Assembly (NCBI RefSeq): GCF_000275825.1
Contig: NZ_JH719942.1
Location: 1,124,988 to 1,175,807 of the forward strand
DNA from: Saprospira grandis DSM 2844
GTDB lineage: Bacteria; Bacteroidota; Bacteroidia; Chitinophagales; Saprospiraceae
DNA length: 50,820 bases
Direction: 5' to 3'
A program made the position numbers and the translations under genes. Of the stretch, positions 1 through 50,212 are shown piece after piece; within the stretch, counting starts at the first letter, position 1, and every line of letters starts with the position of its first letter. Below the pieces are notes generated by a model. That model saw nothing but the letters and a program-made list of their open reading frames with translations. It did no database searches and was not told the DNA's origin.

Positions 1-124
1 GGCTGAGGGATGGATAGCAGTGGCCCAAAGGGCCAGACCCAGCCGCCTTCGGCGGCGCAGGGCCGAGCAGACCTGCGAGCTGCGACACAGCCCGACCCGC
101 CCGAAGGGCGGGGCAGCCCCAAAA
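1..124 (-). repeat. GC-rich modular intergenic repeat (family A), copy 1, truncated at the window edge, reverse orientation, CATCCCTCAGCC subtype
   Basis: Shares cores gctgagggatgg...ggccgagcagacctgcgagc...cccgacccgcccgaagggcggggcagccccaaaa with the other copies. Confidence 0.8.
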
Positions 125-160
125 TAAAATGCTAAATAAGTCGCTAATTTTCAGTTTATT

Positions 161-1972
161 ATGAACAAAGAGGATTATAAAAAGCTTTTGCCCAGCCTGC
201 CGACTGATCCGGGGGTTTATCGATTTATTGGGGCCGATGAGGAGATTTTGTACATTGGAAAAGCCAAAAATCTCAAGAAGCGGATTGCCTCCTATTTTAC
301 GAGCCGCAAGGATATGCGCCTTAAGACGAAGCGGATGGTTATGTCCGCCAAAAAGCTAAATTATACGCTGGTAGAGACGGAGCAGGATGCCCTTTTGCTA
401 GAGGCTACGCTGATTAAAAAGCATCAGCCGCGTTATAATGTGGCCCTAAAACACAGTCGGCCCTACCCTTATATTTGCATTAAAAAAGAGCGTTTTCCGA
501 GGATTATGATTAGCCGAAAAGTGGTGCAGGATGGCTCTAAATATTATGGTCCTTATGTATCTAAAAAGCGGATGTATACGCTCTTAGAGCTAATTAAAGA
601 GTTGTTTCAGCTGCGTAGTTGTGCCCTCAATTTATCGGAGGAAAGCATTGCGGCGGGCAAGCATAAAGTTTGTCTTGAGTACCATATTAAAAATTGCAAG
701 GCGCCCTGTGTGGGTTTTGAGTTGGAGGCCAATTATATGGATAAAATTGAGCAGGTTCAAAATATGCTAAAAGGCCAATTGGGAGCGGTGCGCAAATACC
801 TCAAATCGGAAATGGGCCGCTATGCCGAGGAGCTCAATTTTGAGCAGGCGCAGCGCACGAAGGTCCAGTTGGCTTTGCTTGAAAACTATCAGGGAAAATC
901 GACGGTGGTGAATGCCAATATCCGTGATTTGGATGTTTTTACTTTGGCCCAAGATGAAAAAGGAGAGATGGCCTATATTAACTACCTTAAAGTGGTAGAA
1001 GGGGCGATTATTAACACCTTTATGCTAGAGCTCAAGCAGAATTTGGATACTGAAGGGGAGGATTTGTTGCTTTTTGGGATTCGAGAATTGCGGGAGAAAT
1101 TCCAGAGTATTGCGCCTGAAATTGTTGTCCCCTTCGAGCTTCAGCTGCCTTGGTCCGAGATCCAACTGACGGTCCCAAAAATTGGCGATAAGAAAAAGCT
1201 GCTAGAGCTTTCTGAGAAAAATGCCAAGTATTTCATCCTTCAAAAGCAAAAACAAGCCTTGGCCAAGGCCAACAAAATGGGCAAGGCCGAGCAGCTGTTG
1301 GAGATCATGAAAAAAGACCTACAAATTGATGATTTGCCTATTCATATTGAGTGTTTTGACAACTCCAATTTGCAGGGAAACCAGCCTGTTTCGGCCATGG
1401 TGGTTTTTAAAAATGGGCGGCCTGCCAAAAAAGAATATCGGCATTATCATGTCAAAACGGTAGTTGGTCCAGATGATTTTGCCTCTATGGAAGAGGTCGT
1501 TTTTCGCCGATACAAGCGCCTTTTGGAAGAGAAAAAGCCCCTCCCCCAGCTAATTGTCATTGATGGGGGCAAGGGACAACTTTCTGCGGCGGTCAAAAGC
1601 CTCAAAGCCCTAGGTATTTTTGAGCGTTTGGCCATTATTGGCATTGCAAAAAGGCTAGAGGAAATCTTTTTTCCCAATGATCCCGTTCCGCTTTTGCTCT
1701 CTAAAAAATCGCCGACGCTCAGGGTTATTCAGCAAGCTCGAGACGAGGCCCACCGCTTTGCTATTAGCTTCCACAGAGATGTTCGTTCTAAGCAATTTTT
1801 GCAAAATGAGCTGCGGCAAATTCCGGGGGTTGGCGAAAAAACCCAGGAGAAATTATTGTTGGCCTTGGGCTCCGTCAAAGAGGTCAAGAAGGCCAATTTA
1901 AGCCAATTGGAGGCCATTGTTGGACCAAATTTGGCTCAAAAAATCCGTACTTACTTCGATGCCAAAAGCTGA
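161..1972 (+). CDS. uvrC: Excinuclease ABC subunit C (UvrC)
   Basis: 603 aa. The N-terminal GIY-YIG motif (VYRFIGADEEILYIGKAKNLKKRIASYF) and the overall length and order are typical of UvrC, including the C-terminal HhH region. Confidence 0.9.
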   Translation: MNKEDYKKLLPSLPTDPGVYRFIGADEEILYIGKAKNLKKRIASYFTSRKDMRLKTKRMVMSAKKLNYTLVETEQDALLLEATLIKKHQPRYNVALKHSRPYPYICIKKERFPRIMISRKVVQDGSKYYGPYVSKKRMYTLLELIKELFQLRSCALNLSEESIAAGKHKVCLEYHIKNCKAPCVGFELEANYMDKIEQVQNMLKGQLGAVRKYLKSEMGRYAEELNFEQAQRTKVQLALLENYQGKSTVVNANIRDLDVFTLAQDEKGEMAYINYLKVVEGAIINTFMLELKQNLDTEGEDLLLFGIRELREKFQSIAPEIVVPFELQLPWSEIQLTVPKIGDKKKLLELSEKNAKYFILQKQKQALAKANKMGKAEQLLEIMKKDLQIDDLPIHIECFDNSNLQGNQPVSAMVVFKNGRPAKKEYRHYHVKTVVGPDDFASMEEVVFRRYKRLLEEKKPLPQLIVIDGGKGQLSAAVKSLKALGIFERLAIIGIAKRLEEIFFPNDPVPLLLSKKSPTLRVIQQARDEAHRFAISFHRDVRSKQFLQNELRQIPGVGEKTQEKLLLALGSVKEVKKANLSQLEAIVGPNLAQKIRTYFDAKS

Positions 1973-2451: not shown

Positions 2452-2463
2452 ATTTATTTTTGT

Positions 2464-2583
2464 TTTTTGGGGCCTCCCGCCTTTGGCGGGCGCTACGTTT
2501 CGGGGCTCGCTGTTCGCTCGGCCCTGCGCGGGCTGCGCCCGCTTGGTCTGGCCTTCGGCCACCCCTGCACATCGCTAGGCCAA
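2464..2583 (+). repeat. Family A repeat, copy 2 (forward, CATCGCTAGGCC subtype)
   Basis: ttttggggcc...cgctacgtttcggggctcgctgttcgctcggccc...ggtctggccttcggccacc...catcgctaggcc. Confidence 0.8.
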
Positions 2584-2584
2584 A

Positions 2585-2623: not shown

Positions 2624-2641
2624 TGTGTAATAGAGCAAAGT

Positions 2642-3753: not shown

Positions 3754-3827
3754 GCTTCCATAGCTCAGTTGGTTAGAGCATCTGACTGTTAATCAGAGGG
3801 TCCCTGGTTCGAGCCCAGGTGGGAGCG
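3754..3827 (+). tRNA. tRNA-Asn (GTT)
   Basis: Cloverleaf read by eye: acceptor gcttcca/tgggagc, D-arm gctc-agttggtta-gagc, anticodon loop ctGTTaa, T-arm cctgg-ttcgagc-ccagg. CCA is not encoded. Confidence 0.85.
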
Positions 3828-3852
3828 CTACTCATACACAACAATATATTTT

Positions 3853-3926
3853 GCTTCCATAGCTCAGTTGGTTAGAGCATCTGACTGTTAATCAGAGGGT
3901 CCCTGGTTCGAGCCCAGGTGGGAGCG
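3853..3926 (+). tRNA. tRNA-Asn (GTT), identical second copy
   Basis: Exact duplicate of the 3754-3827 sequence, 25 nt downstream. Confidence 0.85.
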
Positions 3927-3930
3927 CAAA

Positions 3931-4817: not shown

Positions 4818-5060
4818 GTGGACAGGCGGCGAAGCCGCCGCAGGCCTAGCGATGCGGAGGGGTGGCCGAAGGCCAGACCGAGCCGCTCTAAGCGGCGAAG
4901 GGCCGAGCAGACCTGCGAGCCCCATAGCGTAGCGCCTGCCGAAGGCAGGAGGCCCCAAAACAGCAGCGAGCCCCATAGCGACAACAAGCCCTTTAGGGCG
5001 CAGTTCGACGACCGCAGGGAGTAACCGCCGACGAGCGAAGCGAGGCAGGAGGCCCCAAAT
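4818..5060 (-). repeat. Family A repeat, copy 3 (reverse; composite/dimeric with optional module X)
   Basis: There are two ggaggccccaaa ends, at 4950-4964 and 5047-5060. It contains gacaacaagccctttagggcgcagttcgacgaccgcagggagtaacc (module X). Confidence 0.8.
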
Positions 5061-6336: not shown

Positions 6337-6485
6337 CTTTTGGGGCTTCCCCTGCGGCCTTCGGCCTTGGGTCGGGCTCTGTCGCAGCTCGCAAGTTTGC
6401 TCGGCCCTGCAGCGCTTTCAGCGCTTTGGTCTGGCCCTTCGGGCCCCTGCTATCCATCCCTAAGCCGAGTCGCTTCGCTCCTTTT
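6337..6485 (+). repeat. Family A repeat, copy 4 (forward, CATCCCTAAGCC subtype)
   Basis: ttttggggcttcccc...gggtcgggctctgtcgcagctcgcaagtttgctcggccc...ggtctggccc. Confidence 0.8.
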
Positions 6486-9851: not shown

Positions 9852-9933
9852 AGGTCTTATCAATCTAAACAGGGCTCTGCCCTTGGGGTTCTGTTCCGTT
9901 CTAAAATATCTTGCGGTAGTGTGTGCTTGTCTC

Positions 9934-10116
9934 CTATTTGTCTAGCTGCTGGGGAGGGGGCTCTGCATGCATCTGGGCATTGGCCTGCTCATGAATCTTT
10001 CCAATCAACTCATAAACCTCATTAAATGGCCGCTGGCCCAAGGCCTGCAATATCTTATTGATTTCTTGCATGTCTAGCTGCAATAGCAGGGGTTTCTCTT
10101 CTTTTGTCTTGCCCAT
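9934..10116 (-). CDS. Small hypothetical protein (about 60-82 aa) directly upstream of the 1056-aa gene
   Basis: Small ORF on the same strand, 70 nt upstream of the large gene, so possibly co-transcribed. The start is ambiguous (10116 or 10182). There are no recognisable motifs. Confidence 0.35.
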   Translation of the reverse strand: MGKTKEEKPLLLQLDMQEINKILQALGQRPFNEVYELIGKIHEQANAQMHAEPPPQQLDK

Positions 10117-10220
10117 CAGTCTCTTTTTTTGTAAAAGCCTAGCGAATTTAAGAAAAAAAGCGCTTTGTGCCAATTTATACAAATTTGATTACAGATATAC
10201 GGATTCTTTTCACCTTTTTA

Positions 10221-10390
10221 TTTTTTTGGGGCTGCCCCGCCCTGCAGGCGGGTCGGGCTGTCTCAGGGCTCGCAAGCCTGCTCGGCCCTTCGCAAAAAAG
10301 CTGCGCTTTTTTGCTCGGTCTGGCCCTGCGGGCCACCCTTGCCCATCCCTCAGCCATTAAAAGCTGGCTGCGCCAGCCCCGCCCCAACAA
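10221..10390 (+). repeat. Family A repeat, copy 5 (forward, CATCCCTCAGCC subtype)
   Basis: tttttttggggctgccccgccctgcaggcgggtcgggctg...ctcgcaagcctgctcggccc...ggtctggccctgcgggccacc. Confidence 0.8.
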
Positions 10391-10391
10391 A

Positions 10392-10430
10392 AAAAAGCCG
10401 CAGTTGAATACTCAACTGCGGCTTTTTGCG
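10392..10430. terminator. Bidirectional rho-independent terminator
   Basis: Hairpin gccgcagttga-atact-caactgcggc flanked by an A-run on one side and a T-run on the other. It lies 3' of the minus-strand Fe-S protein gene, whose stop is at 10445. Confidence 0.65.
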
Positions 10431-10444
10431 CCAATCCACTCCGC

Positions 10445-11818
10445 TTATTCTGCATTGTTGATCTCCATGGCCCATTTGTCCCGGTCATCCGGAGAAAAGG
10501 CCCAAGGCGCTCCATTGTTTTCTATGGTGTTAAACATACCGTTCCACTCTTCCGGAGAATCAGATTGCTCCAAAATGAGGTTGCGACGCAACTCAACAAT
10601 GATATCTAAAGGGTTAATCAAAACCGGACAAGCCTCTACACAAGCATTACAAGAGGTGCAAGCCCGCAATTCTTCTGTACTGATGTAGTCAAATAGGCTT
10701 TTACCATCGTCATAGTTCTCTACCGTCAATTTAGAGGTCTCCGATTTCTGCTCCTCATTGATGAACTCGGTCTTGTTGAGGTCCAAATTATGCCCCACCT
10801 CATCAGCACGATCCCGAACATCCATCATGATTTTACGTGGCGATAGTTTCTTGCCCGTCAAGTTGGCCGGACACATAGAAGTACAACGACCACATTCCGT
10901 ACAAGTATATGCACTCATGATCTGCTGACGATTAAGGTCAAAAACATCACTTACGCCAAATTTGGGAATCTCCTCCGATACAGGCGCATCAAAGGCAGCA
11001 TTGGGGTCCATCATAGAAGCTACTTCTTCCTGAACCTCTTTCATGTTGGCCATCTCCCCCTTTTTGTTCAATCTGGCCCAAAAAGTATTCGGAAAGGCAA
11101 AAATGATGTGCAAATGCTTGGAATAAGGCAAATAACCTAAAAAGGCAAAGACGATCAAAATGTGGCCCCACCAACCAATGCGCTCCAAAACATGTAGGGT
11201 TTCATTGCTTGCCCCCATTTCTTCCCAAAATGGAGAAATTAACCCACTGACCAAAAAGCCATATTCATTGCGATGAATGGCCATGTCTGTACTGTTCATC
11301 AAAAAGATGCAGAAAACCAAGATGATCTCCGCAAAGAGAATGAGGTTTGCATCCAATTTGGGCCAACCGTTCATCTCGGACTTAACAAAACGGGGCAGCT
11401 TGAGCAAGTTACGTCTGGCCAAAAAGGCAAAGGTTGCCACCAAAGCCATTACCGACAAGACCTCAATGAAGCTCACCAAGAAAGTATAAAAGCCACGGAG
11501 AAAGTCGCTGCCTTCCCACCAAGCCCAAAATAAACGATGCTGGCCCGTCAAGCCATCAATGACAATCTCAATGAGCTCGATTTGCGTAACTAAGAAAGCA
11601 AGGTATACACAAAGGTGCAGACCCGCCGCCAAAGGCCGCTTAAACATTTTTTGCTGGCCCAAGGCAACCATAATGGTATTGCGCCAACGCTCTGGACTAG
11701 GCTTGGCTTCCTCATCTACTTTACCCAGCTGTATATTGCGAACCACAAAGCTGTATTTTTTGTAGGAAAAGGCCGCCGTCCCTAGCAGTACTAAGGCAAA
11801 AAGGATAGGTCCTATCAT
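10445..11818 (-). CDS. Membrane-anchored (Fe-S)-binding protein (N-terminal polytopic membrane domain plus 2x[4Fe-4S] ferredoxin-like domain)
   Basis: There are several predicted TM helices in the first 240 aa or so. Two CxxCxxCxxxCP motifs are present (CTECGRCTSMCP; CTSCNACVEACP). Confidence 0.7.
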   Translation of the reverse strand: MIGPILFALVLLGTAAFSYKKYSFVVRNIQLGKVDEEAKPSPERWRNTIMVALGQQKMFKRPLAAGLHLCVYLAFLVTQIELIEIVIDGLTGQHRLFWAWWEGSDFLRGFYTFLVSFIEVLSVMALVATFAFLARRNLLKLPRFVKSEMNGWPKLDANLILFAEIILVFCIFLMNSTDMAIHRNEYGFLVSGLISPFWEEMGASNETLHVLERIGWWGHILIVFAFLGYLPYSKHLHIIFAFPNTFWARLNKKGEMANMKEVQEEVASMMDPNAAFDAPVSEEIPKFGVSDVFDLNRQQIMSAYTCTECGRCTSMCPANLTGKKLSPRKIMMDVRDRADEVGHNLDLNKTEFINEEQKSETSKLTVENYDDGKSLFDYISTEELRACTSCNACVEACPVLINPLDIIVELRRNLILEQSDSPEEWNGMFNTIENNGAPWAFSPDDRDKWAMEINNAE

Positions 11819-12019: not shown

Positions 12020-12215
12020 GTGGCCCCGCCGTATTGGCCCAGCGCTGCGAAGGGGTGGCGCAAAGCGCCAGACCCAGGCGCTGAAAGCGCCGCAGGGCCG
12101 AGCAGACCTGCGAGCCCCGACAACAAGGACTTTAGTCCGCAGTTCGACGACCGAAGGGAGTAACCATAGCGGCGGCCGACCTAGGCAAAGCCTAGCCGGC
12201 CGCGGGCCCCAAAAC
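12020..12215 (-). repeat. Family A repeat, copy 6 (reverse; with module X)
   Basis: ggccgagcagacctgcgagccccgacaacaaggactttagtccgcagttcgacgaccgaagggagtaacc...gggccccaaaacc. It ends 10 nt before the protease start codon. Confidence 0.8.
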
Positions 12216-15610: not shown

Positions 15611-15765
15611 TTTGGGGCTGCCCCTGCGGCCTTCGGCCTGGGGTCGGGCTGTGTCGCAGCTCGCAGGTCTGCTCGGCCCTGCGGCGGCTTTGCCGCCTGG
15701 GTCTGGCCTGCGGCCACTGCTGTCCATCCCTCAGCCTGCGGCCCTTTGGGCCTGTAGGAGGCCGA
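15611..15765 (+). repeat. Family A repeat, copy 7 (forward, CATCCCTCAGCC subtype)
   Basis: Near-consensus copy: ttttggggctgcccctgcggccttcggcctggggtcgggctgtgtcgcagctcgcaggtctgctcggccctgcggcggctttgccgcctgggtctggcctgcggccac. Confidence 0.85.
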
Positions 15766-16462: not shown

Positions 16463-16617
16463 GCAGGGCCGAAGGCCCGCAAAGGAGCGCAGCGACGCGG
16501 CTGAGGGATGGACAAGGGGGGCCGCAGGCCAGACCAAGGCGGCAAAGCCGCCGCAGGGCCGAGCAGACCTGCGAGCCCTGAAACAGCCCGACCCGCCTGA
16601 AAGGCGGGGCAGCCCCA
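16463..16617 (-). repeat. Family A repeat, copy 8 (reverse, CATCCCTCAGCC subtype)
   Basis: Reverse complement of the consensus. It ends gggcggggcagccccaacaaaaaaa, 17 nt before the Smr gene start. Confidence 0.85.
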
Positions 16618-21832: not shown

Positions 21833-21990
21833 TTTTTTGGGGCTGCCCCTTCGCTTCGCTGCGGGTCGGGCCATTTCGCAGCTCGCAGGTCTGCTCGGCC
21901 CTTCGGCGCTTGCAGCGCCTCGGTCTGCCGCCTGCGGCGGCCCTGCTACAGCCCCTCAGCCGATAGGCTGGGGCTCCGCCCCAGCCCCAT
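21833..21990 (+). repeat. Family A repeat, copy 9 (forward)
   Basis: tttttttggggctgcccc...gggtcgggccatttcgcagctcgcaggtctgctcggccc...ggtctgccgcctgcggcggccc. Confidence 0.8.
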
Positions 21991-26905: not shown

Positions 26906-26939
26906 GCTATGCTATTCGGTCTTTGTAGAACAATCGAGA

Positions 26940-27088
26940 CTGTTTAAAGTTTTCTGTTTCTCCTTTTTGCTGCCTAGAAACAAGCCCCTAGACTCGCTTT
27001 TTTAGACAGCCCTCTAAAGAGGGCCTTTGGAGAAGGTTCTTCTCTGCGATAACAACTGAACAAGGCCCAGTATATCAACAGTTGAGGC
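26940..27088. repeat. Second repeat family (element B), copy 1
   Basis: About 85% identical to 38858..39008: gtttaaagttttctgtttctcctttttgctgcctagaaacaagcccctagactcgc...cagacagccctctaaagagggcctttgga...aacaactgaacaaggcc...tatatcaacagttgaggc. Confidence 0.7.
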
Positions 27089-27093: not shown

Positions 27094-27160
27094 AGTTTAC
27101 TTCCAGACCGAACTAGTTTACCCCCAGACCGAACTAGTTTACCCCCAGACAGAACTTTTG
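27094..27160. repeat. Short tandem repeat (about 22 bp x 3; agtttaccYccagaccgaact)
   Basis: Seen directly: two perfect units and one degenerate unit, immediately after element B copy 1. Confidence 0.7.
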
Positions 27161-27297: not shown

Positions 27298-27420
27298 CGG
27301 CCTAGCGATGCGGAAGGGGGCGGCGAAGCCGCAGACCAAGGCCGTCAGGCCGCAGGGCCGAGCAGCCTTGCGAGCCCTGCAGCGTAGCGCCTGCCGCAGG
27401 CAGGAGGCCCCAAAACAAAA
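27298..27420 (-). repeat. Family A repeat, copy 12 (reverse, CATCGCTAGGCC subtype, short)
   Basis: ggcctagcgatgcggaagggggcggcgaagccgcagaccaaggccgtcaggccgcagggccgagcagccttgcgagccc...ggaggccccaaaac. Confidence 0.8.
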
Positions 27421-30400: not shown

Positions 30401-32491
30401 AGGAATACTAATAGGATTCATATCCATAGCAGGACTACCACAATTTGCATAAGCAGTATTGCTAGAATTTTGACGATTAAAAGGGCCTAAGATAGTTCCA
30501 TCCTCTAACTCTAGCGTAAAACTAGCGGCATCTGTGCCATAAGCACCCGACAAAGAAAAGGACAAAGAGGGAGCTACTGCTACATCTAAAGTATTGACAC
30601 TAAAACTAAGTGTATGGCTAGGCCCAACAGTATTCCGGCATTCATCTGAATAAGTTGCAGTAGATGCTCCACCAATCTCATCATCATAGATATCAACTAA
30701 ACCATCGCCATCTATATCTAGATCAGAGTCAACTTGGCCATCACCATCAGTATCAACTCCGCCAGCCTCTACAATATCTGGAATACCATCATTATCGGCA
30801 TCTAAGTCTACATGATCGGGAGAACCATCACCATCGGCATCAAAATTAGCACAAACACTATTAGAGATACCAGAGCAATAAGGAAAATCTACATCAGAAT
30901 AATTTGGGACACCATCGCCATCTAAGTCTCCAGAAGGATCTGGCAGACCATCTGCACAGTCCCAACCATTTACTCCCGCAAAAACATCTGCGCAGAAATT
31001 GGGATCAGCATAATCTGGTGTACCATCGCCATCATGATCTCCATTATAGATTTCTACAATATCCAGAACGCCATCATTGTCATCATCAATATCACAGGCA
31101 CTCAAAAGGTTATCTTCATCAATTTCTGTAGTATAGTTGGGGTTCTGAATAGGTACATATAAAGAAACAGATCCACCAGCAGTTCCATCAACTGATCCAT
31201 TTCTAGCACCATTAGTATGTTCACCTCCAGCACCACCATCAGAAATAAAAGTAAGATTGGTAGGTATAGAAGCCAGAGAGTATAACAAGGCTCCGCCACC
31301 GCCGCCACCACCTGGTCCATGCTCATTCGTGGTATTCAAATTTTGACCATCTCCTCCAGATACATTTACACTTAACAAGCCTTCATAAACTTGTGTTTTA
31401 AGAACAACGCTACCTCCAGCGCCTCCTCCGCCACCACCATCTGGGGCACCCACAGGATTTACAGCCACAGGAGTGGTCCCTCGAACATTGATAGTGTAGC
31501 CGTTTCCAACAATCGTATCCGCAAAAACAATTACAATTCCACCACCATCAGCAGCAGAAGAAGGGTTATTTGTAGATACCCAACCAGGTCCACCAGCACC
31601 ACCCAAGAACACTTTATCTTGAGCAAGATAGCTGTTTAAAGCAGCTCCACCTATACCTCCAGCAGGATCAACTTTATTGCACCAACGATTACCTCCATTT
31701 CCACCTTCACCATAGTTACTTCCGCCTCCTCCTCCAGAGTCACCAGAAGCACCAGAACCACCACCATTGGCCCGCTTTCCACGTCCATGGTTGGTAGCTG
31801 GATCATCTACAACAATACCACTCCCTTTTTCCCATGCTTCAATAGCTGTATTTGGTAGCGTATATTGAAGAGTTGGATCAATGGTACAGTTGTCTGGGCT
31901 TCCATTAACCGTCATTTGAATACCTTGATACCCCTTTCCTAAAAGATCAATATCCGCATTCAATACCAATTTATCCGTCACCAAGGCCAAAACCCCACCA
32001 ACACCATTCGTCTCACTCCAATCTTGAGCCGTCAAAGTAGAGTTGACCTCCACTACATTGTTTCCATAATCTGGAATCCGCACAACTTGCACCACTCCAG
32101 TTACATCATAATTCCGAATCAATGAATATTTAGGCGTCAATACATTTCCGGTAATACTCCCAATTTCAAAAAATTCATAGTTACCCGCCTCGTTAATATT
32201 CAAAATATCTCCTGAAGCAGATGTATTCGTCACATCTATATCCGCTCCCTTCATCTGAATAATCAAGGCCTTATCCCCAGCTGCAAAAGCCGAAGGGTCT
32301 TGCACCGTAATAGTATGCGCACAGGCCTGATCACAGGGATCGCATACGGGTAAATTTAACGATGTTACTGCCGTATAGTCATTGATAATCCCCCCAATGC
32401 TCACCTGAGCAATGGCAGAGCCCCCATACAACAAACAGAAAGCAAGGACAAAAACTGCCCTCCTTAAGTAGTTTGTAATTTTCACGTTCAT
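27473..32491 (-). CDS. Giant secreted calcium-binding repeat adhesin (thrombospondin type-3 repeats) with T9SS C-terminal sorting domain
   Basis: 1672 aa. It has a signal peptide, Gly-rich segments, more than 20 DxDxDGxxDxxD/DNDGIPD repeats and a C-terminal Por_Secre_tail (VFPNPASDFVNIRF...). The internal DNA units of about 270 bp are near-identical. Confidence 0.85.
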   Translation of the reverse strand: MNVKITNYLRRAVFVLAFCLLYGGSAIAQVSIGGIINDYTAVTSLNLPVCDPCDQACAHTITVQDPSAFAAGDKALIIQMKGADIDVTNTSASGDILNINEAGNYEFFEIGSITGNVLTPKYSLIRNYDVTGVVQVVRIPDYGNNVVEVNSTLTAQDWSETNGVGGVLALVTDKLVLNADIDLLGKGYQGIQMTVNGSPDNCTIDPTLQYTLPNTAIEAWEKGSGIVVDDPATNHGRGKRANGGGSGASGDSGGGGGSNYGEGGNGGNRWCNKVDPAGGIGGAALNSYLAQDKVFLGGAGGPGWVSTNNPSSAADGGGIVIVFADTIVGNGYTINVRGTTPVAVNPVGAPDGGGGGGAGGSVVLKTQVYEGLLSVNVSGGDGQNLNTTNEHGPGGGGGGGALLYSLASIPTNLTFISDGGAGGEHTNGARNGSVDGTAGGSVSLYVPIQNPNYTTEIDEDNLLSACDIDDDNDGVLDIVEIYNGDHDGDGTPDYADPNFCADVFAGVNGWDCADGLPDPSGDLDGDGVPNYSDVDFPYCSGISNSVCANFDADGDGSPDHVDLDADNDGIPDIVEAGGVDTDGDGQVDSDLDIDGDGLVDIYDDEIGGASTATYSDECRNTVGPSHTLSFSVNTLDVAVAPSLSFSLSGAYGTDAASFTLELEDGTILGPFNRQNSSNTAYANCGSPAMDMNPISIPTASWNTANDDGVVVIIMNTTTDVDPSLCSGVASCISNMEVSYIGTGTAGNLITGLDSDNDGIPNSLDLDSDNDGIPDLVEIGGEDTDGNGQIDAFTDTDGDGFHDVVDGDVGNDGTAENTANALQLTGADNNNDGLADSYLNGDSDADGILDIYDLDSDNDGIPDAVEAGGTDADGDGRIDNFVDTDGDGFHDAVDGDVGNDGTAENTANALQLTGADNNNDGLADSYPNNDVDGDGIPNQLDLDSDNDGITDLVEAGGTDTNGDGLADNFSDTDNDGLHDVLDGDVGNDGTTENSAQALILTGNDVNNDGAPDNYPNGDADNDGLLNIYDLDSDNDGIADVVEAGGTDTNGDGFADDFVDTDNDGLHDILDGDVGNDGTAENSAQALILTGTDSNNDGQADTYPNGDFDADGLLNIYDLDSDNDGIQDILEAAGTDADGNGRVDTFTDADGDGFADALDGDPNNDGTADNSAAVLILTGADNNNDGTPDSYPNANADADATPNFLDLDSDNDGITDVVEAAAGAVTGAANTDSPSNGTLDGQIEDGPITDANGDGWSDLQNGTINLLDTDADGIADLYDIDADNDGIPDYLEAVCSTCPTFGMTPSGTDANGNGVLDIYEGLDAANQTTGANIGATPNEDNNDGSAPADYLDLDADNDSGYDWAEGFDNGFGTATAGDGNAADEIIQMAAAYVANGGNPAHYPNPDSDGDGLPDWLDNLNGNGYTNNQTPPFLDPNSPFWIDADNDGLADIFDDNVNGSALGTTAPTPNNDGLDDNDWRDANTYVDFPIEWLFFNAERQSSSTVLLSWASETERDNQGFEVERMFDYETDFSQIDFVQGQGNSTTTNYYSYTDNNSYENTTYYRLRQVDFNGDFEYSEVRAVNNTEAESVDISVFPNPASDFVNIRFSQLKTSSKVNFKLLDVLGRQVFSSSQTVRPGDLITLDAIQNLPAGTYYLNVHIEAVQSQLNFEVVKP

Positions 32492-32536: not shown

Positions 32537-32690
32537 TTTTTGGGGCTGCCCCGCCCTGCGGGCGGGTCGGGCTGTGTCGCAGCTCGCTACTCGCTCGGCC
32601 CTGCAGCAGCAAAGCTGCTTGGGTCTGCCGCCTTCGGCGGCCCTGCTTTCCATCCCTCAGCCAGTCGCTTCGCTCCTTAAAGAATAACTC
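32537..32690 (+). repeat. Family A repeat, copy 13 (forward, CATCCCTCAGCC subtype)
   Basis: ttttggggctgccccgccctgcgggcgggtcgggctgtgtcgcagctcgctactcgctcggccc... It lies 46 nt upstream of the adhesin start codon. Confidence 0.85.
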
Positions 32691-35171: not shown

Positions 35172-35358
35172 TCAGGGCGGGCCGAAGGCCCGCCGGCCTA
35201 GCGATGTGCAGCAGTGCGGCGCAGCCGCAGACCAAGGCCGTCAGGCCGCAGGGCCGAGCGAGTAGCGAGCTGCGAAACGACAACAAGGTCTTTAGACCGC
35301 AGTTCGACGACCGAAGGGAGTAACCGCCGACGACCGAAGGGAGGCGGAGGCCCCAAAT
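35172..35358 (-). repeat. Family A repeat, copy 14 (reverse; with module X)
   Basis: ggcctagcgatgtgcagc...gggccgagcgagtagcgagctgcgaaacgacaacaaggtctttagaccgcagttcgacgaccgaagggagtaaccgcc...ggaggccccaaat. Confidence 0.8.
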
Positions 35359-37045: not shown

Positions 37046-37190
37046 TTTGGGGCCTCCGCCTCGCTGCGCTCGTCGGCGCTACGCTTTGGGGCTCGCAGGT
37101 CTGCTCGGCCCTTCGCCAGCAAGCTGGCTCGGTCTGGCCTAACGGCCACCCCACCGCATCGCTAGGCCAGGCTGGCCTTCGGCCAGCCTT
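37046..37190 (+). repeat. Family A repeat, copy 15 (forward, CATCGCTAGGCC subtype)
   Basis: ttggggcctccgcc...cgctacgctttggggctcgcaggtctgctcggccc...ggtctggcctaacggccacc...catcgctaggccaggctggccttcggccagcc. Confidence 0.8.
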
Positions 37191-38788: not shown

Positions 38789-38857
38789 TATAAGGCCTTG
38801 CTCCTTAGTAGAATATTAGATGATCCCCTCCTCGGAGGGGATTTGAGCCTGTTTAAA

Positions 38858-39050
38858 ATTTTGTGTTTCTCCTTTTTGCTGCCTAGGGACAAGCCCCTAG
38901 GCTAGCTTTTTCAGACAGCCCTCTAAAGAGGGCCTTTGGATGAGGTTTTTCTCTGTGACAACAACTGAACAAGGCCTTGTATATCAATAGTTGAGGCCCT
39001 CGCAGAGGGCTGACTCCATTGGATTAGCCTAGGGGCTTGTCCCTGGGCGA
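38858..39050. repeat. Second repeat family (element B), copy 2, with 21-bp terminal inverted repeats
   Basis: About 85% identical to 26940..27088. The internal inverted repeat is ctgcctagggacaagcccctaggct ... agcctaggggcttgtccctgg. There are internal hairpins (gccctctaaagagggc; gccctcgcagagggc). Confidence 0.7.
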
Positions 39051-39137
39051 CTATTGGCCAAATCCCAACAAGCTAAAGGCCCAAATTTTATTCTAATACA
39101 CAAAATCCTGAACAGTCCCAGGGATTTTTTTTGTGCC

Positions 39138-39484
39138 CTATTCGACAGAGATCAAACAGCTCATCAAAGTCTTGATGCCCTATTCGACAGAGATCTAATA
39201 CCCCATCAAAGGCTTGATGCCCTATTCGACAGAGATCTAATACCCCATCAAAGGCTTGATGCCCTAGTTGACAGAGATCAAACAGCCCATCAAAGGCTTG
39301 ATGCCCTAGTTGACAGAGATCTAATACCCCATAAAAGGCTTGATGCCCTAGTTGACAGAGATCAAATACCCTATAAAAGGCTTGATGCCCTAGTTGACAG
39401 AGATCAAATACCCCATCAAAGGCTTGATGCCCTATTCGACAGAGATCTAACAGCTCATCAAAGGCTTGATGCCCTAGTTGGTCC
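39138..39484. repeat. 42-bp tandem repeat array (8 full units plus a partial unit), frame-preserving
   Basis: The units begin at 39138, 39180, 39222, 39264, 39306, 39348, 39390 and 39432. Consensus: ctaKtYgacagagatcWaaYaSCYcatMaaaGKcttgatgcc. There are no interspersed unique spacers. Confidence 0.9.
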
Positions 39485-39520
39485 AAAAACAAAAGGGGCT
39501 GCTCGATATCGAGCAGCCCC
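39480..39520 (-). terminator. Rho-independent terminator downstream of the outer-membrane protein gene
   Basis: The perfect palindrome ggggctgctcgatatcgagcagcccc is followed on the minus strand by ttttgtttttgg. Confidence 0.7.
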
Positions 39521-39543
39521 TTTGCAGCAGGTCCTAAGTCATC

Positions 39544-41226
39544 TTAGAACTTAGCCATTACACCAATTTTTCCATTGATGCCCAATTGCTGATAGAGGTA
39601 CCAGCGTTGGTATTTATTATTGAGCAAATTATTGCCTTCTACAAAGAAAGCAAAGCGTTGTTGCTCTCCTTTTCCGAGCCAGTAAGTAGCATTGAGGTTA
39701 AGGTCAAACAAGCCGCCAAGAGTTTCGCTTTCGGTGCCCAAGGCAGGGAGATAAGGCACGCCCGCATTGACAAAGAGGTCGGCCCCAACTTCTAGATTGC
39801 CTTTTTTGTATGTCAGGCCAAAGCTAGACTCCAAAACAGGCAGATGATAAGCCACTTCAGCCGTTCCGCCACTATAGTTATTAAAGGCCAAAGCGCCTTT
39901 AAAGTAGAGTTCCTCCATAATTTGGAGTTCTACATCTGCGGCCAGGGTTAGGCGGCTGAGCGTATCATAGGCCAGACCAAATTTCAGATAATTGCTTTCT
40001 GTGGTATTATAGAAAAGGGGTTGTTGGCTCAAATTGGCATAAGAGACATTAAAGTCGTAGCCTAGGCGCTTAATCTTCCCTTTGAGTCCCCCATAAAAGC
40101 GGCTTTCTTGCGTATGTTCCCAATGCAGGCGCTCTGTATCTAAGAAAGGATTATAAGTAGAGAGCTGCATGAGGGTATTTTCACGGATGCTGCCCGACCA
40201 ACCTGCATAGGGAATAAATTGGCCCCCTAAAACGGCATAGCTCAACTCAATATCGGGCAAAACGAAAAACTGTCCGGCATTGCTTCCTAAGCGGGCGCCT
40301 AGACGGCTCTTAAAGTTGCCAAAATTGAGGTCGGCTCCAGCATGCAATTGGGCCAGGCTGCGGCTTTGGCTGCTATCGGTGGTGGTATAGCGGCTATACA
40401 GCAGCTCGGCATTGGCAAAGAGGCGATGTTGAGGGCTGCGGCTATTGCCCAACCATTTTTCAAAAACAAGGCGGGGGCGGATATTGAGCTCGCCAACGCC
40501 ATGATAAGAAGTGGTGTTATAGAGGTCCAGATCGGCTCTATAGTTCATCTCTTGTTTATTACTTTTGGCATTGAAGAGATGAATATTGGCCCCTATTGTA
40601 AGGTAGCGTTGTTTGAGGCTATCTTCGGCTAGGCCAGAGCTATCTTGGGCAAAGGGATAGAGGCTATCGCCTAGGTTTTCGAGGAGTTGGTGGTAGCCAT
40701 AGTAGCGATAATTATTGAGGTCCATATTTAGGGCGCCGCCAATGGCTAGGCCATTAGGCAGAAAATAATCGCCTTGTAGATTTACTGAGGTTTCGCCAAA
40801 AACTTGGTCCTCTAAGTTACCTTGGCTACTATGGTGTTTGGCTGTAGCTCCAAAGCTAAACTTATCGCTATTGCTATTGTGGTAAGAGAGTTCTAGCAAA
40901 GGGGAAAGAGGGAAACCAATGCCCGCCTTTGTATAAAAGTGGAGACTTTTGGGGGGCTTAGGCACCGGCATAGCCAGTGGGCGGATATTAGGTTCTGGAT
41001 AATTGACCGAGACGATCCGTTCGGGGACCAGATAGGTCAATTTTTGGCCAGCGGTGGTATCCAAATCGGCTAAAAGAGGCTGAGCCTCCTGCTTTTTACT
41101 TTCGGCCAATTGGGCCTTAAAGGGTTTGACTAGCTCGGTCCCTACATCATTGATTTGGGCCTTTAGGTTGGGGGCAAAAAGCCCAACAGCCAAAGCTAAA
41201 CAAAGAGATTTACTATATTTTATCAT
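39544..41226 (-). CDS. Outer-membrane beta-barrel protein (hypothetical)
   Basis: Signal peptide (MIKYSKSLCLALAVGLFAPNLKAQ), alternating amphipathic beta-strand pattern and a C-terminal aromatic residue (…GVMAKF). Confidence 0.6.
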   Translation of the reverse strand: MIKYSKSLCLALAVGLFAPNLKAQINDVGTELVKPFKAQLAESKKQEAQPLLADLDTTAGQKLTYLVPERIVSVNYPEPNIRPLAMPVPKPPKSLHFYTKAGIGFPLSPLLELSYHNSNSDKFSFGATAKHHSSQGNLEDQVFGETSVNLQGDYFLPNGLAIGGALNMDLNNYRYYGYHQLLENLGDSLYPFAQDSSGLAEDSLKQRYLTIGANIHLFNAKSNKQEMNYRADLDLYNTTSYHGVGELNIRPRLVFEKWLGNSRSPQHRLFANAELLYSRYTTTDSSQSRSLAQLHAGADLNFGNFKSRLGARLGSNAGQFFVLPDIELSYAVLGGQFIPYAGWSGSIRENTLMQLSTYNPFLDTERLHWEHTQESRFYGGLKGKIKRLGYDFNVSYANLSQQPLFYNTTESNYLKFGLAYDTLSRLTLAADVELQIMEELYFKGALAFNNYSGGTAEVAYHLPVLESSFGLTYKKGNLEVGADLFVNAGVPYLPALGTESETLGGLFDLNLNATYWLGKGEQQRFAFFVEGNNLLNNKYQRWYLYQQLGINGKIGVMAKF

Positions 41227-41258: not shown

Positions 41259-41420
41259 GGACAGGCGGCGAAGCCGCCGCAAAGGAGCGCAGCGACGCGG
41301 CTGAGGGATGGAGAGGGTGGCCCGCAGGGCCAGACCGAAGCGCTTTAGCGCTGAAGGGCCGAGCAGACCTGCGAGCCCGGAACAGCCCGACCCGCCCGCA
41401 GGGCGGGGCAGCCCCAAAAA
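41259..41420 (-). repeat. Family A repeat, copy 16 (reverse, CATCCCTCAGCC subtype)
   Basis: gacaggcggcgaagccgccgc...gctgagggatgg...gggccgagcagacctgcgagcccgg...gggcggggcagccccaaaaaaa. Confidence 0.85.
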
Positions 41421-44669: not shown

Positions 44670-44832
44670 TTTTGGGGCCTCCGCAGCAAAGCTGCGGCGC
44701 TACGCTTTGGGGCTCGCAAGTCTGCTCGGCCCTTCGTTTTTCGCTACGCTCAAAAACTCGGTCTGGCCTTCGGCCACCCCGCCGCATCGCTAGGCCAGAT
44801 GGCCTACGGCCAAGGCGGCTTTGCCGCCTTCT
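44670..44832 (+). repeat. Family A repeat, copy 17 (forward, CATCGCTAGGCC subtype)
   Basis: ttttggggcctccgcagcaaagctgcggcgctacgctttggggctcgcaagtctgctcggccc...ggtctggccttcggccacc...catcgctaggccagatggcctacggcc. Confidence 0.8.
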
Positions 44833-45772: not shown

Positions 45773-45889
45773 GGCCTAGCGATGTGCAAGGGTGGCCGTC
45801 AGGCCAGACCGAGGCGCAAAGCGCCGAAGGGCCGAGCAGGCCTGCGAGCCCTGGAACGTAGCGCCTGCCGAAGGCAGGAGGCCCCAAAA
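45773..45889 (-). repeat. Family A repeat, copy 18 (reverse, short, CATCGCTAGGCC subtype)
   Basis: ggcctagcgatgtgcaagggtggccgtcaggccagacc...gggccgagcaggcctgcgagccc...ggaggccccaaaaa. Confidence 0.8.
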
Positions 45890-47971: not shown

Positions 47972-49912
47972 TTACTCCTCTTCCCAAAAGGCTTCTAGGG
48001 CCAATTCGGCGGCTTCCCATTTTTCCATGGCTTCTTCTGTAGCCGCTTCATTTTCTTGATGTTTGGCTAAGGCTTTTTCATAATTGGGGGTTCCAAATTT
48101 GCTGCTATCGCCCAAGGTTTTTTCCAGTTTATTTTTCTCTTCTTCTAGTCGTTGCAGTTGTCGTTCTGCATTCTGGATATTTCTTTTGAGTTGTTTGAGG
48201 GCTTGCTTGACCGCTGGGTCGTTTTCATCTTTTTTGGGCTTGGCTTTTTTGCTGCTGCCGCTGTTGTTGGCCGTTTTGCCCAAAGAAACATCTCGCAGGC
48301 TGCCGTATTGGCGTTTTTTAAGGAAGTATTCAGAGTCGCCCAAATAGGTTTTGAGCTTCTTTTGGTCAAATTCAATAACTTTATCGGTCAAGCTATCCAA
48401 AAAGTCTCTATCGTGAGAAACCACCACCAAGGTCCCATCATAATGCAAAAGGGCCTCTTTCAAAATGGCCTTAGAAAGCATATCGAGGTGGTTGGTGGGT
48501 TCATCCAGTACCAATAAGTTGATGGGGTGCAAAAGCAAGCAGGCCATAGCTAGGCGGGCCCGTTCTCCTCCCGATAAAACCGATACTTTTTTGTCTACAT
48601 CCTCCCCCTTAAAGAGAAAGGAGCCCAAAATAGCCCGTAGTCGGGGACGCAGCTCGAAGGGGGCATCTTGTTCTATAGTTTCTAAAACGGTCTTTTTGGG
48701 GTCTAGGGCTTCGGCCTGATTCTGTGCATAGTAGCCCAAATGGACATTATGGCCCAATTCGCTTGTTCCGCCGGTGGGCAGCTGTTGGCCCACCATTATT
48801 TTCACTAAGGTCGATTTTCCCTCTCCGTTTTTGCCCATAAAGGCTAGGCGTTCGCCTCGGATGATGGTCAAATCTACCTCATTCAAGATCAAATTATCGC
48901 CATAGCTTTTGCTCAGCCCCTTAACAATGGCTACTCTTTCGCCAGAGCGAGGTGCTGGCGGAAACTCCAAACGCATCCGGCTGCTATCGCCATCTTCTAG
49001 CTCGATCCGCTGCATGCGGTCCAATTCCTTGATGAGCGATTGGGCCATTTTGGCCTTATTGGCCTTGGCTCTAAACTTATCGACTAGGGCTTCTTTGCGG
49101 GCAATTTCTTTTTGCTGCTGCTGAAAAGCCGACTGCATTTGGGCCTGCCGCTCTTCTCGCAATTCTAAATATCGAGAGTAGTTGGCTTTATAATCATGCA
49201 CTTTGCCCAACTCAATCTCAATGGTGCGCTGCGTCACCTTGTCCAAAAAGGCTTTATCGTGAGAAATTACAATCACGGCCCCTTCATAAGGCTGTAAAAA
49301 CTGCTCGAGCCAAATGATAGATTCAATATCCAAATGGTTGGTGGGCTCATCCAAAAGCAAAAGCTGTGGCCGCTGCAAGAGGATTTTGGCCAACTCGATC
49401 CGCATTTGCCAGCCCCCACTAAAAGTAGTGGTTTGTCGATCAAAATCACTGACCGAAAAGCCCAAGCCCATCAAGATTTTCTCGGCTTCGGCTTGCAAGC
49501 TTTGGCCACCAATCAAGGCCAGACGGTCGTTTAATTCCGATAATTCATGAATCAGCTCCATATAGCCATCGCTGCTATAATCGGTCCGCTCCTCCATTTC
49601 TTGCTGAATCTCTTCTAGGCGTTTTTCCATGGCCTGCGCCTTGGCAAAAGCCGTCATGGCCTCTTCCAACACCGTTTTGCCCTTGGGCAAGAGCATATCT
49701 TGATGCAAAAACCCGATGCTGAGGTCTTTAGGAGCGGCAATATTGCCTTGCATGGGCGCAATTTGTCCCGCAATAATCTTAAGCATAGTCGATTTCCCCG
49801 CCCCATTTCGGCCCGTCAGACCAATGCGGTCTTTTTCTCGCACCGTAAAGGAAACCTGGTCCAATAATCGGCGATCGCCATATTGTACATATATATTCTG
49901 AAGGTTCAGCAT
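47972..49912 (-). CDS. ABC-F family ATPase (tandem ABC domains, no TMD; Uup/YheS/EttA-like)
   Basis: Two sets of Walker A (GRNGAGKST; GKNGEGKST), signature (LSGGWQMR; LSGGERAR) and Walker B motifs, separated by a linker. There is a C-terminal coiled-coil. Confidence 0.9.
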   Translation of the reverse strand: MLNLQNIYVQYGDRRLLDQVSFTVREKDRIGLTGRNGAGKSTMLKIIAGQIAPMQGNIAAPKDLSIGFLHQDMLLPKGKTVLEEAMTAFAKAQAMEKRLEEIQQEMEERTDYSSDGYMELIHELSELNDRLALIGGQSLQAEAEKILMGLGFSVSDFDRQTTTFSGGWQMRIELAKILLQRPQLLLLDEPTNHLDIESIIWLEQFLQPYEGAVIVISHDKAFLDKVTQRTIEIELGKVHDYKANYSRYLELREERQAQMQSAFQQQQKEIARKEALVDKFRAKANKAKMAQSLIKELDRMQRIELEDGDSSRMRLEFPPAPRSGERVAIVKGLSKSYGDNLILNEVDLTIIRGERLAFMGKNGEGKSTLVKIMVGQQLPTGGTSELGHNVHLGYYAQNQAEALDPKKTVLETIEQDAPFELRPRLRAILGSFLFKGEDVDKKVSVLSGGERARLAMACLLLHPINLLVLDEPTNHLDMLSKAILKEALLHYDGTLVVVSHDRDFLDSLTDKVIEFDQKKLKTYLGDSEYFLKKRQYGSLRDVSLGKTANNSGSSKKAKPKKDENDPAVKQALKQLKRNIQNAERQLQRLEEEKNKLEKTLGDSSKFGTPNYEKALAKHQENEAATEEAMEKWEAAELALEAFWEEE

Positions 49913-49965
49913 GATTATTTTCTTTTAGTCGCCGCAAAAATAGCCTTTTTCTTTGAAATAATAAT

Positions 49966-50212
49966 TTTTTGGGGCCTCCGCTGCGGCCTGCGGCCTTGCG
50001 GCGGTTACTCCCTTTGGTCGTCGAACTGCGCCCTAAAGGGCTTGTTGTCGCTTTGCAGCTCGCTGAGGTTTTGGGGCCTCCGCTGCGGCCTGCGGCCTTG
50101 CGGCGCTACGTTTCGCAGCTCGCTACTCGCTCGGCCCTGCGGCCTGACGGCCTGGGTCTGCGGCTGCGCCGCACTGCTGCACATCGCTAGGCCGAATGGC
50201 CTTCGGCCATTT
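49966..50212 (+). repeat. Family A repeat, copy 19 (forward dimer; first unit carries module X, second is the CATCGCTAGGCC subtype)
   Basis: Two ttttggggcctccgctgcggcctgcggccttgcggcg heads, at about 49968 and 50079. The first is followed by the complement of module X (ggttactccctttggtcgtcgaactgcgccctaaagggcttgttgtcg). Confidence 0.8.

Follow-up and report, generated by a model that had tools for sequence, protein, structure and literature searches.

What the structured repeat is that occupies most of the gaps between genes in Saprospira grandis, and how its copies can be sharply typed and mosaic at once, are questions raised by a 50,820-nucleotide stretch of S. grandis DSM 2844 (contig NZ_JH719942.1, positions 1,124,988 to 1,175,807), here called the window. 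A search with a profile of the copies (nhmmer) finds 19 full copies in the window, each 113 to 175 nt long and all of them intergenic, at a density of about 1 copy per 2.7 kb; together with two 5' half units, they amount to about 2.56 kb, or 5% of the window. Here, we document the anatomy of the element, the covariation of its arms, the discreteness of its classes, the swapping of blocks between orthologs, and its retention at orthologous sites. We consider it probable that the element is an undescribed family of structured, mosaic, extragenic repeats resembling repetitive extragenic palindromes (REP), bacterial interspersed mosaic elements (BIMEs), and REP doublets (REPINs), in which matched pairing arms define the classes and the center is exchanged.

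Paired arms and discrete classes

The order of parts is fixed. Copy coordinates run from GGGGC through GCC, and the 5' part begins, after TTT(T), with GGGGCNN, the 5' arm of a terminal helix (P1), followed by hairpin 1 and by the 5' core, which is the 5' arm of a second long-range helix (P2). The center leads from GCTCGC through a linker of 5 to 6 nt to GCTCGGCCC, T(G/T)C (TKC), and hairpin 2, and the 3' part leads from YK-GGTCTG through hairpin 3 to the 3' module (the 3' arm of P2), one T, and NNGCC (the 3' arm of P1). The stretch GCTCGC-N5-6-GCTCGGCCC is invariant among copies. Hairpins 1 to 3 differ wholly in sequence from copy to copy and yet are near-perfect palindromes: across 516 distinct stems, 2706 pairs are Watson-Crick and 14 are internal mismatches (99.5% Watson-Crick; G:T 3, A:C 6), and 76% of the distinct hairpins have 3-nt loops, nearly always closed by C:G.

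How the two ends relate was asked in a comparison set made up of the window and 120 metagenome contigs (915 kb) from related organisms rather than the same genome, with 373 cores and about 270 copies parsed at both ends. Covariation was measured as mutual information on columns set by invariant anchors and was not fitted to any structure; anchors were used because MAFFT, in aligning whole copies, places the 5' end out of register. The terminal pentamers that form P1 are perfectly complementary in 257 of 276 copies and come in four covarying versions, GGCCT/AGGCC (111 copies), GGCTG/CAGCC (101 copies), GGCCC/GGGCC (34 copies), and GGCTT/AAGCC (11 copies), and mixtures of the GGCTG/AGGCC kind were not seen among the 276. 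Variable P1 pairs are canonical in 98% of cases, compared with 61% after shuffling. The terminal complementarity spans 5 bp and reaches 8 in the types called Ib and IV below.

Mutual information also pairs the 5' core with the 3' module as P2. The column pairs include C518-E36 (GC 150, AT 85), C517-E37 (GC 110, CG 106, TA 25), and C57-E317 (CG 142, GC 121); outer pairs flip between G-C and C-G from class to class, and types II and III have T-A or C-G at an inner pair. In the segment P2b, the three bases before GCTCGC and the G of that motif pair with a C and the three bases right after hairpin 3. The two triplets are complementary in 233 of 274 copies, within every subfamily, and in about 92% after a 1-nt offset in type Ib is allowed. 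At least nine triplet pairs occur inside single subfamilies (GCA/TGC, GTG/CAC, AGG/CCT, GGG/CCC, GCC/GGC, GCG/CGC, ATG/CAT, ACC/GGT, and CTG/CAG). P2b, the inner 4 bp, is 97% canonical, whereas 500 within-subfamily shuffles average 77% and never exceed 80%, and sliding the partner along gives 34 to 80%. RNAalifold, run on the plain MAFFT alignment, also predicts P2a, P2b, hairpin 2, and a basal GGCC/GGTC helix, with compensatory changes. What the preliminary description of this locus had called a 3' module and a variant 5' core are the two strands of the same helices.

That description had divided the copies into two subfamilies by their 3' ends and had tied the 5' core to them. Both ends are present in the window far above chance: CATCGCTAGGCC-type patterns match 6 times and the 3' motif TGCTRTCCATCCCTCAGCC 4 times at no more than 2 mismatches, with 0.01 expected in each case. 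Seven copies end in CCATCCCT(C/A)AGCC, nine in CATCGCTAGGCC, and one each in ACAGCCCCTCAGCC (21839), CAGGCCCCTAGGCC (26764), and CAGCGCTGGGCC (12036). Counted by the shorter end CCCT(C/A)AGCC, the first group has eight copies, CCATCCC being present in seven of them. The tie to the 5' core is borne out, with GGCGCTACG in 8 of the 9 copies with the second end and GGTCGGGC in all copies with the first; the choice between GGGGCTCGC and GCAGCTCGC in the quoted cores does not follow type. The number of classes, however, is at least five. By 5' core and 3' module, the larger sample contains 106 copies of type I, 106 of type II, 34 of type III, 19 of type Ib, and 13 of type IV, with only about 7 cross combinations, so that core and module classes agree in about 97%, and strict hybrids of 5' terminus and 3' module number 2 in 247. 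Two window copies that look intermediate are members of discrete types of their own. The repeat family thus falls into five or more discrete types (I, Ib, II, III, and IV), and the continuum of intermediate forms that would have told against the preliminary description is not seen; its suggestion of at least two master lineages is too simple, given this number of classes and a coupling of 5' and 3' ends by base-pairing and not by co-inheritance alone.

The exact 22-mer core is also found in metagenome-assembled genomes (MAGs) of Lewinellaceae and Saprospiraceae of 40 to 60% GC. The Lewinellaceae MAGs have the same architecture with other complementary arms (P1 GCGTG/CACGC, P2a GGTGCCT/AGGCACC), and in two Saprospiraceae MAGs, P2b is GTA/TAC. 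Thus, the core and its covarying scaffold are older than the genus Saprospira.

Exchange of the center and descent of the copies

How far the center follows the classes differs from part to part. Association with subfamily, as Cramer's V, is 0.69 for the 5' terminus, 0.67 for the 5' core, and 0.49 for the triplet before GCTCGC, and it is 0.18 for the TKC state and 0.17 for the linker form (p = 0.12). When two copies have an identical hairpin 1 cassette, they belong to the same class in 90% of pairs, and hairpin 1 moves with the 5' arm; for identical hairpin 2 or hairpin 3 cassettes, 44% of pairs are of the same class, versus 30% at random. In Saprospira sp. CCB-QB6, an identical central block is present in two copies 4 kb apart, one of type I (L129 14451) and one of type II (L129 18238), which is direct evidence of conversion between classes. 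Between orthologs, hairpin 1 was replaced in the S1-TsaB copy. For TPR-560 and UPF0047, the exchange takes in the entire central block, which begins with the triplet, continues through the linker, which changes from long to short, then TKC and hairpin 2, and closes with the partner triplet. Whole-block replacement is seen within species too, at the 2469 copy. The module shuffling suggested by the preliminary description thus holds for the central part (linker, TKC, hairpin 2, and hairpin 3), but the outer arms stay matched.

A separate, strong non-Watson-Crick coupling was noticed across hairpin 2 (for example, at 15680-15705). Of 177 copies with CCCTGC, 171 have T(G/T/A)GGTCTG, and of 83 with CCCTTC, 66 have TCGGTCTG (V = 0.56); the coupling shifts in concert between orthologs. 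A base pair between TKC and YK' (TGC with TG, TT, or TA; TTC with TC) was considered and set aside, as the combinations are not Watson-Crick and block linkage is simpler. The coupling probably is linkage within the converted block; a tertiary contact is also possible.

How old the copies are was judged from syntenic regions of Saprospira sp. CCB-QB6 (CP116808), S. grandis strain Lewin (CP002831), and one metagenome relative. A copy is found at the same site in CCB-QB6 for 13 of the 13 window copies covered by syntenic regions and in strain Lewin for 7 of the 7 covered, while 4-fold degenerate sites of the flanking genes are only 60 to 79% identical between the window and CCB-QB6; thus, the insertions predate the species split. 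Four aligned pairs of orthologous elements are 78 to 98% identical. Orthologs keep their subfamily arms and differ by blocks, and paired changes are seen at single loci, with T-A in one species and G-C in another in P1 and T-A versus C-G in P2. Rare true hybrids do occur in CCB-QB6, one joining a type IV 5' arm to a type Ib 3' end and another, at the site of window copy 4843, joining a type II 5' arm to a type I 3' end. As to presence and absence, orthologs differ only in half units, in the inserts called V below, and in a single additional unit in Lewin. The elements are old and probably inherited mainly by vertical descent.

Copies along the window and their surroundings

Type I accounts for seven window copies. 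The copy at 1-120(-), whose 3' flank is cut by the window start, has the 5' end GGGGCTG, the core GGTCGGGCTGTGTCGCA, and the end CCATCCCTCAGCC, which it shares with the copies at 10228-10355(+) and 15614-15736(+), both recognized as profile matches, and with those at 16499-16616(-), 32542-32662(+), and 41299-41415(-). The copies at 16499 and 41299 continue into a 3' extension, GCGTCGCTGCGCTCCTTT, and the one at 32542 has the short linker TACTC. The copy at 6342-6466(+) ends in CCATCCCTAAGCC and has the terminal pair variant GGCTT/AAGCC, which is GGCTG/CAGCC in its CCB-QB6 ortholog. These seven were rightly listed together in the preliminary description; the copy at 21839-21961(+), placed with them there, has the core GGTCGGGCCATTTCGCA and the end ACAGCCCCTCAGCC and belongs to the separate type Ib.

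Type II accounts for nine copies, all correctly listed with the end CATCGCTAGGCC, which is exact in each. The copy at 2469-2581(+) has the 5' end GGGGCCT, the core GGCGCTACG, and the short linker TGTTC, with orthologs in Lewin and CCB-QB6. Those at 4843-4956(-), with the II/I hybrid as its CCB-QB6 ortholog, 23153-23275(-), and 27299-27411(-) are profile matches, and another lies at 37049-37168(+). In the copy at 35195-35354(-), a V insert (35279-35324) replaces CTAC of the 5' core, and the CCB-QB6 ortholog is a dimer. The copy at 44674-44796(+) is followed by an extra hairpin, that at 45773-45885(-) sits between the terminator hairpin of the S1 gene and the start of TsaB, and that at 50073-50193(+), with the short linker TACTC, matches the copy at 35195 with 96% identity across 100 nt. 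The copy at 26764-26877(+) had been counted with this group, but it ends in CAGGCCCCTAGGCC rather than CATCGCTAGGCC, has GGGGCCTG at its 5' end and the core GGCCGGGCCCTT, and is type IV.

Three units were left out of the earlier list: the type III copy at 12036-12210(-), with the 5' end GGGGCCC, the core CCGCCGCTATG, the end CAGCGCTGGGCC, and a 46-nt V insert at 12119-12164, and the two 5' half units. The half unit at 4961-5056(-) consists of GGGGCCTCC, a hairpin, a V insert (4980-5025), and GCTCGC-TGCTG, and TTTT links it to the copy at 4843-4956; that at 49971-50068(+) has a V insert at 50004-50049 and is linked by TTTT to the next copy, where CCB-QB6 has a monomer only. Several details of the listed copies also need amending. 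The reverse-copy starts given as 16463, 41259, 4818, 23138, and 35172 take in 3' flank. The leading TGCT(A/G)T, quoted as a conserved end, varies as the pairing partner of the 3 nt that precede GCTCGC, and only 2 copies have it exactly; the CCACCCC stretch, quoted as consensus, varies among copies. A downstream hairpin of the GGCCTTCGGCC type, proposed to mark one subfamily, follows 7 of the 10 copies listed for it and also follows type I copies, so that it marks no one subfamily.

Other variation was seen within and beside the copies. A half unit, TTTT, and a full copy make a dimer; the half unit at 4961 is missing at this site in strain Lewin, and the site by the cob(I)alamin adenosyltransferase gene has a dimer in CCB-QB6 and a single unit in the window, which looks like a deletion between two TCGCAGCTCGC repeats. 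The V insert, 46 nt of the form GTTACTCCCTTCGGTCGTCGAACTGCGG-n-CTAAAG-n-CCTTGTTGTC, has its own small covarying hairpin. Besides the four in the window (12119-12164(-), 35279-35324(-), 4980-5025(-), and 50004-50049(+)), V inserts occur in loci L129, L131, and L132 and in many metagenome loci, in the same orientation as the host element in 38 of 43 cases. The insert replaces 4 nt, namely CTAC (5' core), CTAG (3' module), or CTTC, with TTTC in some copies and possibly CTCC at the 5' end, and that of copy 12036 is missing from the Lewin and CCB-QB6 orthologs. The V insert looks like a separate mini mobile insert.

Small GC hairpins beside the 3' ends (44797-44812 and 37169-37189) have been gained or lost between orthologs. 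The hairpin AGATGGCCTACGGCCA, at 44797-44812, is missing from two sister genomes, and AGGCTGGCCTTCGGCCAGCCT corresponds to AGGCGGGCCT in CCB-QB6, which fits slippage between GCCTTC repeats. Moreover, an extra conserved module, (G/A)NGTCGCT(T/G)CGCTCCTT, follows the 3' end in 4 of 8 type I/Ib copies (6467-6484, 16481-16498(-), 32663-32680, and 41281-41298(-)), and a similar GCGTCGCTCCTT lies within the Lewinellaceae versions, so that the true 3' boundary of some copies may be further out.

Where the element sits relative to genes was measured for 245 copies. Its T-rich 5' end is a median of 45 nt from the nearest boundary of an open reading frame (ORF), or 27 nt where that boundary is a stop codon, and its 3' end is a median of 154 nt away; on the 5' side, 53% of copies adjoin a gene end and 47% a divergent gene start. 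The preliminary description had raised a difference in context between subfamilies, but types I and II do not differ in whether a gene start or a gene end adjoins them (Fisher p = 0.22 and 0.17). Upstream, TTT alone is invariant, within a T run 3 to 8 long.

The genes of the window are ordinary chromosomal ones, among them UvrC, a SpoU methylase, a PfkB kinase, MqnC, ribosomal proteins L20 and S1, TsaB, an ABC-F protein, and a type IX secretion cargo. TsaB and MqnC are 100% identical to S. grandis DSM 2844 proteins encoded on a 4.42-Mb contig. Other features were noticed between and within the genes of the window. Two intergenic stretches of 153 nt (26936-27088 and 38845-38997), different from the element, are 90% identical to each other; they have no Rfam match at the gathering threshold and could be another repeat family or a pair of small RNA genes. 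Between two element copies, at about 27100-27150, the intergenic DNA contains about 2.5 units of a short tandem repeat, CCAGACCGAACTAGTTTACCC. At 39050-39553, about 12 copies of a 42-nt unit (60 to 100% identity) form a tandem array at or beside the end of a 560-aa ORF (39544-41226(-)), and at 28618-31043, tandem repeats of 264 nt encode aspartate-rich, calcium-binding-like units in a 1672-aa protein with a Por_Secre_tail (type IX secretion) domain. Two identical tandem tRNA-Asn(GTT) genes, 25 nt apart, lie at 3754-3927.

Readings of the element and known repeat systems

How matched arms and an exchanged center might arise together can be sketched as follows. The type-specific 5' terminus and 5' core are complementary to the type-specific 3' module, and a copy would be well formed only when both ends are of the same type, which would give discrete classes. 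The central block (the triplet before GCTCGC, the linker, hairpins 2 and 3, and the partner triplet) is swapped between copies of any class, by gene conversion or homologous recombination, which would give the mosaic look. The fold may form in single-stranded DNA (ssDNA) rather than in RNA, and the family may have arisen as a non-autonomous REP/REPIN-like element recognized via its invariant core and now be inherited mainly vertically. Mismatched hybrids would be removed or corrected, since end pairing would matter to whatever recognizes the element. Strict Watson-Crick stems, triloops, an orientation of about 50/50, and the lack of a conserved promoter or terminator point to constraint at the DNA level or to copying of well-formed donors, and away from a typical RNA family. 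With DNA parameters, z scores of the folds are -1.2 to -3.3 for the reverse strand and -0.5 to -2.6 for the forward strand. The minimum-energy fold of the reverse strand contains P1, hairpins 1 to 3, and outer P2 in two of four copies (41299 and 15614), and that of a third (44674) shows most of these helices.

Several observations weigh against this account. Fold energies of single sequences are only modestly better than those of shuffles (z of -0.5 to -3.3), and the middle of P2, eight positions long, shows no significant pairing (48% versus 44%) and forms an internal loop. Hairpin loops are strongly strand-biased (C-TNC-G 66 versus C-GNA-G 5), which duplex-symmetric DNA does not predict; the two strands are not equivalent, and the common loops of the reverse strand are C-GNA-G, which we take to be a very stable DNA mini-hairpin motif. 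The comparison loci were fetched by the exact core 22-mer and come mostly from one metagenome, making the set a biased one. Neither a transposase in the window nor any enzyme or binding partner was found, and in about 1 Mb of related DNA, all-against-all ORF clustering revealed no multi-copy ORF and a crude HUH...Y regular expression no HUH/Y1-like ORF. In relatives, the REP that flanks RayT-like genes is another one, simple and 22 nt long. Finally, the data leave room for a function at the RNA level.

What might move the element was sought more widely. The same ORF clustering and crude pattern search showed neither TnpA nor TnpB in the related loci, and a RayT-like ORF from a relative, used as a query, had no match in S. 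grandis. One such gene, a RayT-like Y1 transposase at 9910-10748 of locus L136 (Saprospiraceae MAG JADJTQ010000001.1), is flanked by REP hairpins GACGGGTTTYRAACCCGTC; no copy of the Saprospira core lies within 20 kb of it, and its REP is absent from the window. Another, at L134 3823-4477, is frameshifted, and neither locus carries the Saprospira element. Viral contigs and phage genomes held no copy. Among plasmids, only three Saprospira plasmids carry copies, unannotated and without a transposase. In these plasmids (NC_016936.1, NZ_CP110855.1, and NZ_CP116809.1; 53 to 55 kb), the element is present at 10 to 14 places each; the Lewin plasmid, with purine biosynthesis and paa genes, has one between purH and the gene that comes next in the pur cluster.

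A reading to which we give some, but limited, credence is that the element is maintained by the host as a vertically inherited structured RNA or ssDNA rather than being decaying selfish DNA. The 22-nt junction core GCTCGCAGGTCTGCTCGGCCCT would then be a putative binding or active site, and the P1 and P2 arms and interchangeable hairpin cassettes would just keep it in shape. If so, the element would be a new class of genome-wide element with a function at gene boundaries.

It seems unlikely, though less so than the readings that follow, that the element is a multi-copy structured noncoding RNA, either a small RNA or a cis-acting module, transcribed from the strand that runs from TTTTGGGGC to GCC. 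P1, P2, and hairpins 1 to 3 would hold an invariant junction (CUCGC..GCUCGGCCC and GGUCUG) for protein or RNA binding, and the subfamilies would amount to versions of a single RNA whose helices covary. An invariant unpaired junction among helices that vary in sequence and conserve pairing is the classic signature of a functional RNA, and the 22-nt core is exact across genera of 40 to 60% GC while the arms covary. Moreover, copies are retained at orthologous sites, some being 94 to 98% identical where 4-fold sites are 60 to 79%; RNAalifold gives an invariant G:U pair in the GGCC/GGUC helix; the hairpin loops are strand-biased; and one copy has a Bacteroidetes-type TTTG-N19-TAnnTTTG motif just upstream. 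As a general feature, however, a promoter did not hold up, as TAnnTTTG overlaps TTTTG at that one copy and positions -7 and -6 are not conserved across copies. Against an RNA stand the lack of a conserved promoter (TTT alone upstream) or downstream T-run terminator, the near-equal orientation to the neighboring gene, and the triloops in three-quarters of hairpins. Stems also lack the wobble enrichment usual for RNA families (G:T 3 versus A:C 6 in 2720 pairs), and DNA folding slightly favors the opposite strand. None of 4227 Rfam 15 families matches the element at the gathering threshold, and even at E values up to 10 there are only chance-level hits (E = 3.1 and 5.9); in the window, only two tRNAs reach the gathering threshold. 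A strand test by RNA folds of whole elements (G:U 1111 forward versus 394, the reverse slightly more stable) was uninformative and was replaced by mismatch counts in the defined stems, which show no strand bias.

That the classes reflect lineage alone, with master sequences amplified and their 5' and 3' modules co-inherited without structural coupling, is improbable. Such descent would account for the linkage of 5' terminus, 5' core, hairpin 1, and 3' module to class, and shuffling within subfamilies does strip most of the signal for P1 and P2a. All four P1 variants, however, differ by exact Watson-Crick compensation, P2b covaries inside subfamilies, and single orthologous loci have changed on both arms (T-A versus G-C in P1, T-A versus C-G in P2). 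Moreover, central blocks recombine across classes, and linkage alone would not keep the arms matched in more than 97% of copies; the arms of distant relatives are entirely different and yet complementary. Least probable of all is an ordinary family of miniature inverted-repeat transposable elements (MITEs), deleted derivatives of at least two DDE-type insertion sequences (IS), one master per subfamily, with termini serving as transposase-bound terminal inverted repeats: the termini are indeed inverted repeats that differ by subfamily, and the copies are numerous, intergenic, and places where short-read assemblies break, but the ends are complementary over just 5 bp (8 at most in Ib and IV), target-site duplication is absent (longest common flank substring of 4.68 versus 4.77 in shuffled pairs; junction identity of at least 4 nt in 3 of 264 copies), no transposase appeared in about 1 Mb, whole elements are never present in one genome and absent in the other at 13 of 13 sites although about 21 to 40% of 4-fold sites differ, and descent from master copies does not account for the internal long-range covariation found inside subfamilies. 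A retroposon-like reading, based on a variable A tail on the reverse strand, was dropped, as flanking duplications are absent.

The preferred reading, a REP/BIME/REPIN-like family with matched arms and an exchanged center, would make these repeats a clean natural case in which pairing constraints create discrete repeat "species" within one genome while recombination mixes the unconstrained rest, the arms being matched in about 97 to 99% of copies despite recombination. Extrapolated from the window, the density would amount to roughly 1,600 copies per 4.4-Mb genome, or about 5% of the DNA. The repeats also break short-read assemblies of Saprospira genomes, and Logan short-read contigs with the UvrC gene of the window are just 2.2 to 2.4 kb long and terminate beside repeats. 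Finally, should the core bind a protein or the element be transcribed, several hundred natural variants would provide a ready mutational map.

The element can be set beside several known kinds of repeat. It behaves most like the extragenic repeats of REP/REPIN and BIME/BOX type but fits the structural definition of neither, nor that of MITEs. The literature searched offered no paper with the core sequence or any account of repeats in Saprospira, and the announcement of the WH genome is silent on them. Like MITEs such as Correia/NEMIS or RUP, the element is small, noncoding, abundant, and intergenic, with inverted termini. Unlike them, it has no target-site duplication, no parent IS that could be found, about 5 bp of terminal complementarity where MITEs have terminal inverted repeats of at least about 10 bp matching the parent, and no whole-unit insertion polymorphism between species. 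Nonautonomous elements of the IS200/IS605 type (PATEs) have neither terminal inverted repeats nor target-site duplications, bear subterminal hairpins, and insert 3' of a fixed short target by means of TnpA (Y1). The Saprospira element also lacks target-site duplications and has an invariant TTT at its 5' flank, but its termini pair together.

The mosaic systems are closer. BOX elements of Streptococcus pneumoniae are modular (A-B-C), with type-defining termini, a variable middle, stable predicted structures, and more than 100 intergenic copies; they vary by boxB number, are AT-richer, and are thought to be mobilized like MITEs. The sequences are unrelated, and the Saprospira element has instead fixed hairpin slots with interchangeable cassettes. 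BIMEs of Escherichia coli combine palindromic units with other motifs in varying combinations, are strictly extragenic, and often occupy the same sites in related species; they are tandem arrays of REP units in alternating orientation with linker motifs and no overall closing helix, and they bind IHF, gyrase, or Pol I. The Saprospira unit shares their mosaic and extragenic character, but its two ends pair and its module order is fixed.

REPINs are doublets of inverted REP palindromes of about 20 to 40 nt that form one long hairpin (PMC3116915). The Saprospira element lacks such a REP-doublet hairpin and is instead a multi-branched fold of 113 to 175 nt, with two long-range helices, three hairpins, and an invariant unpaired core of 21 to 22 nt. 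Moreover, no GTAG/CTAC-hairpin unit is shared by all Saprospira types, and no cognate REP-associated tyrosine transposase (RAYT) was found in the window or in about 1 Mb of related loci, the RayT-like genes of relatives carrying another REP. It does have the over-represented, extragenic, compensated hairpins of a REPIN, and with the REPIN/REP-RAYT systems (PMC3116915, PMC3337134) it shares high copy number, conserved arms around a variable middle with compensatory changes, an extragenic location, several families per genome, predicted folding as ssDNA or mRNA, insertion without target duplication, and long vertical persistence.

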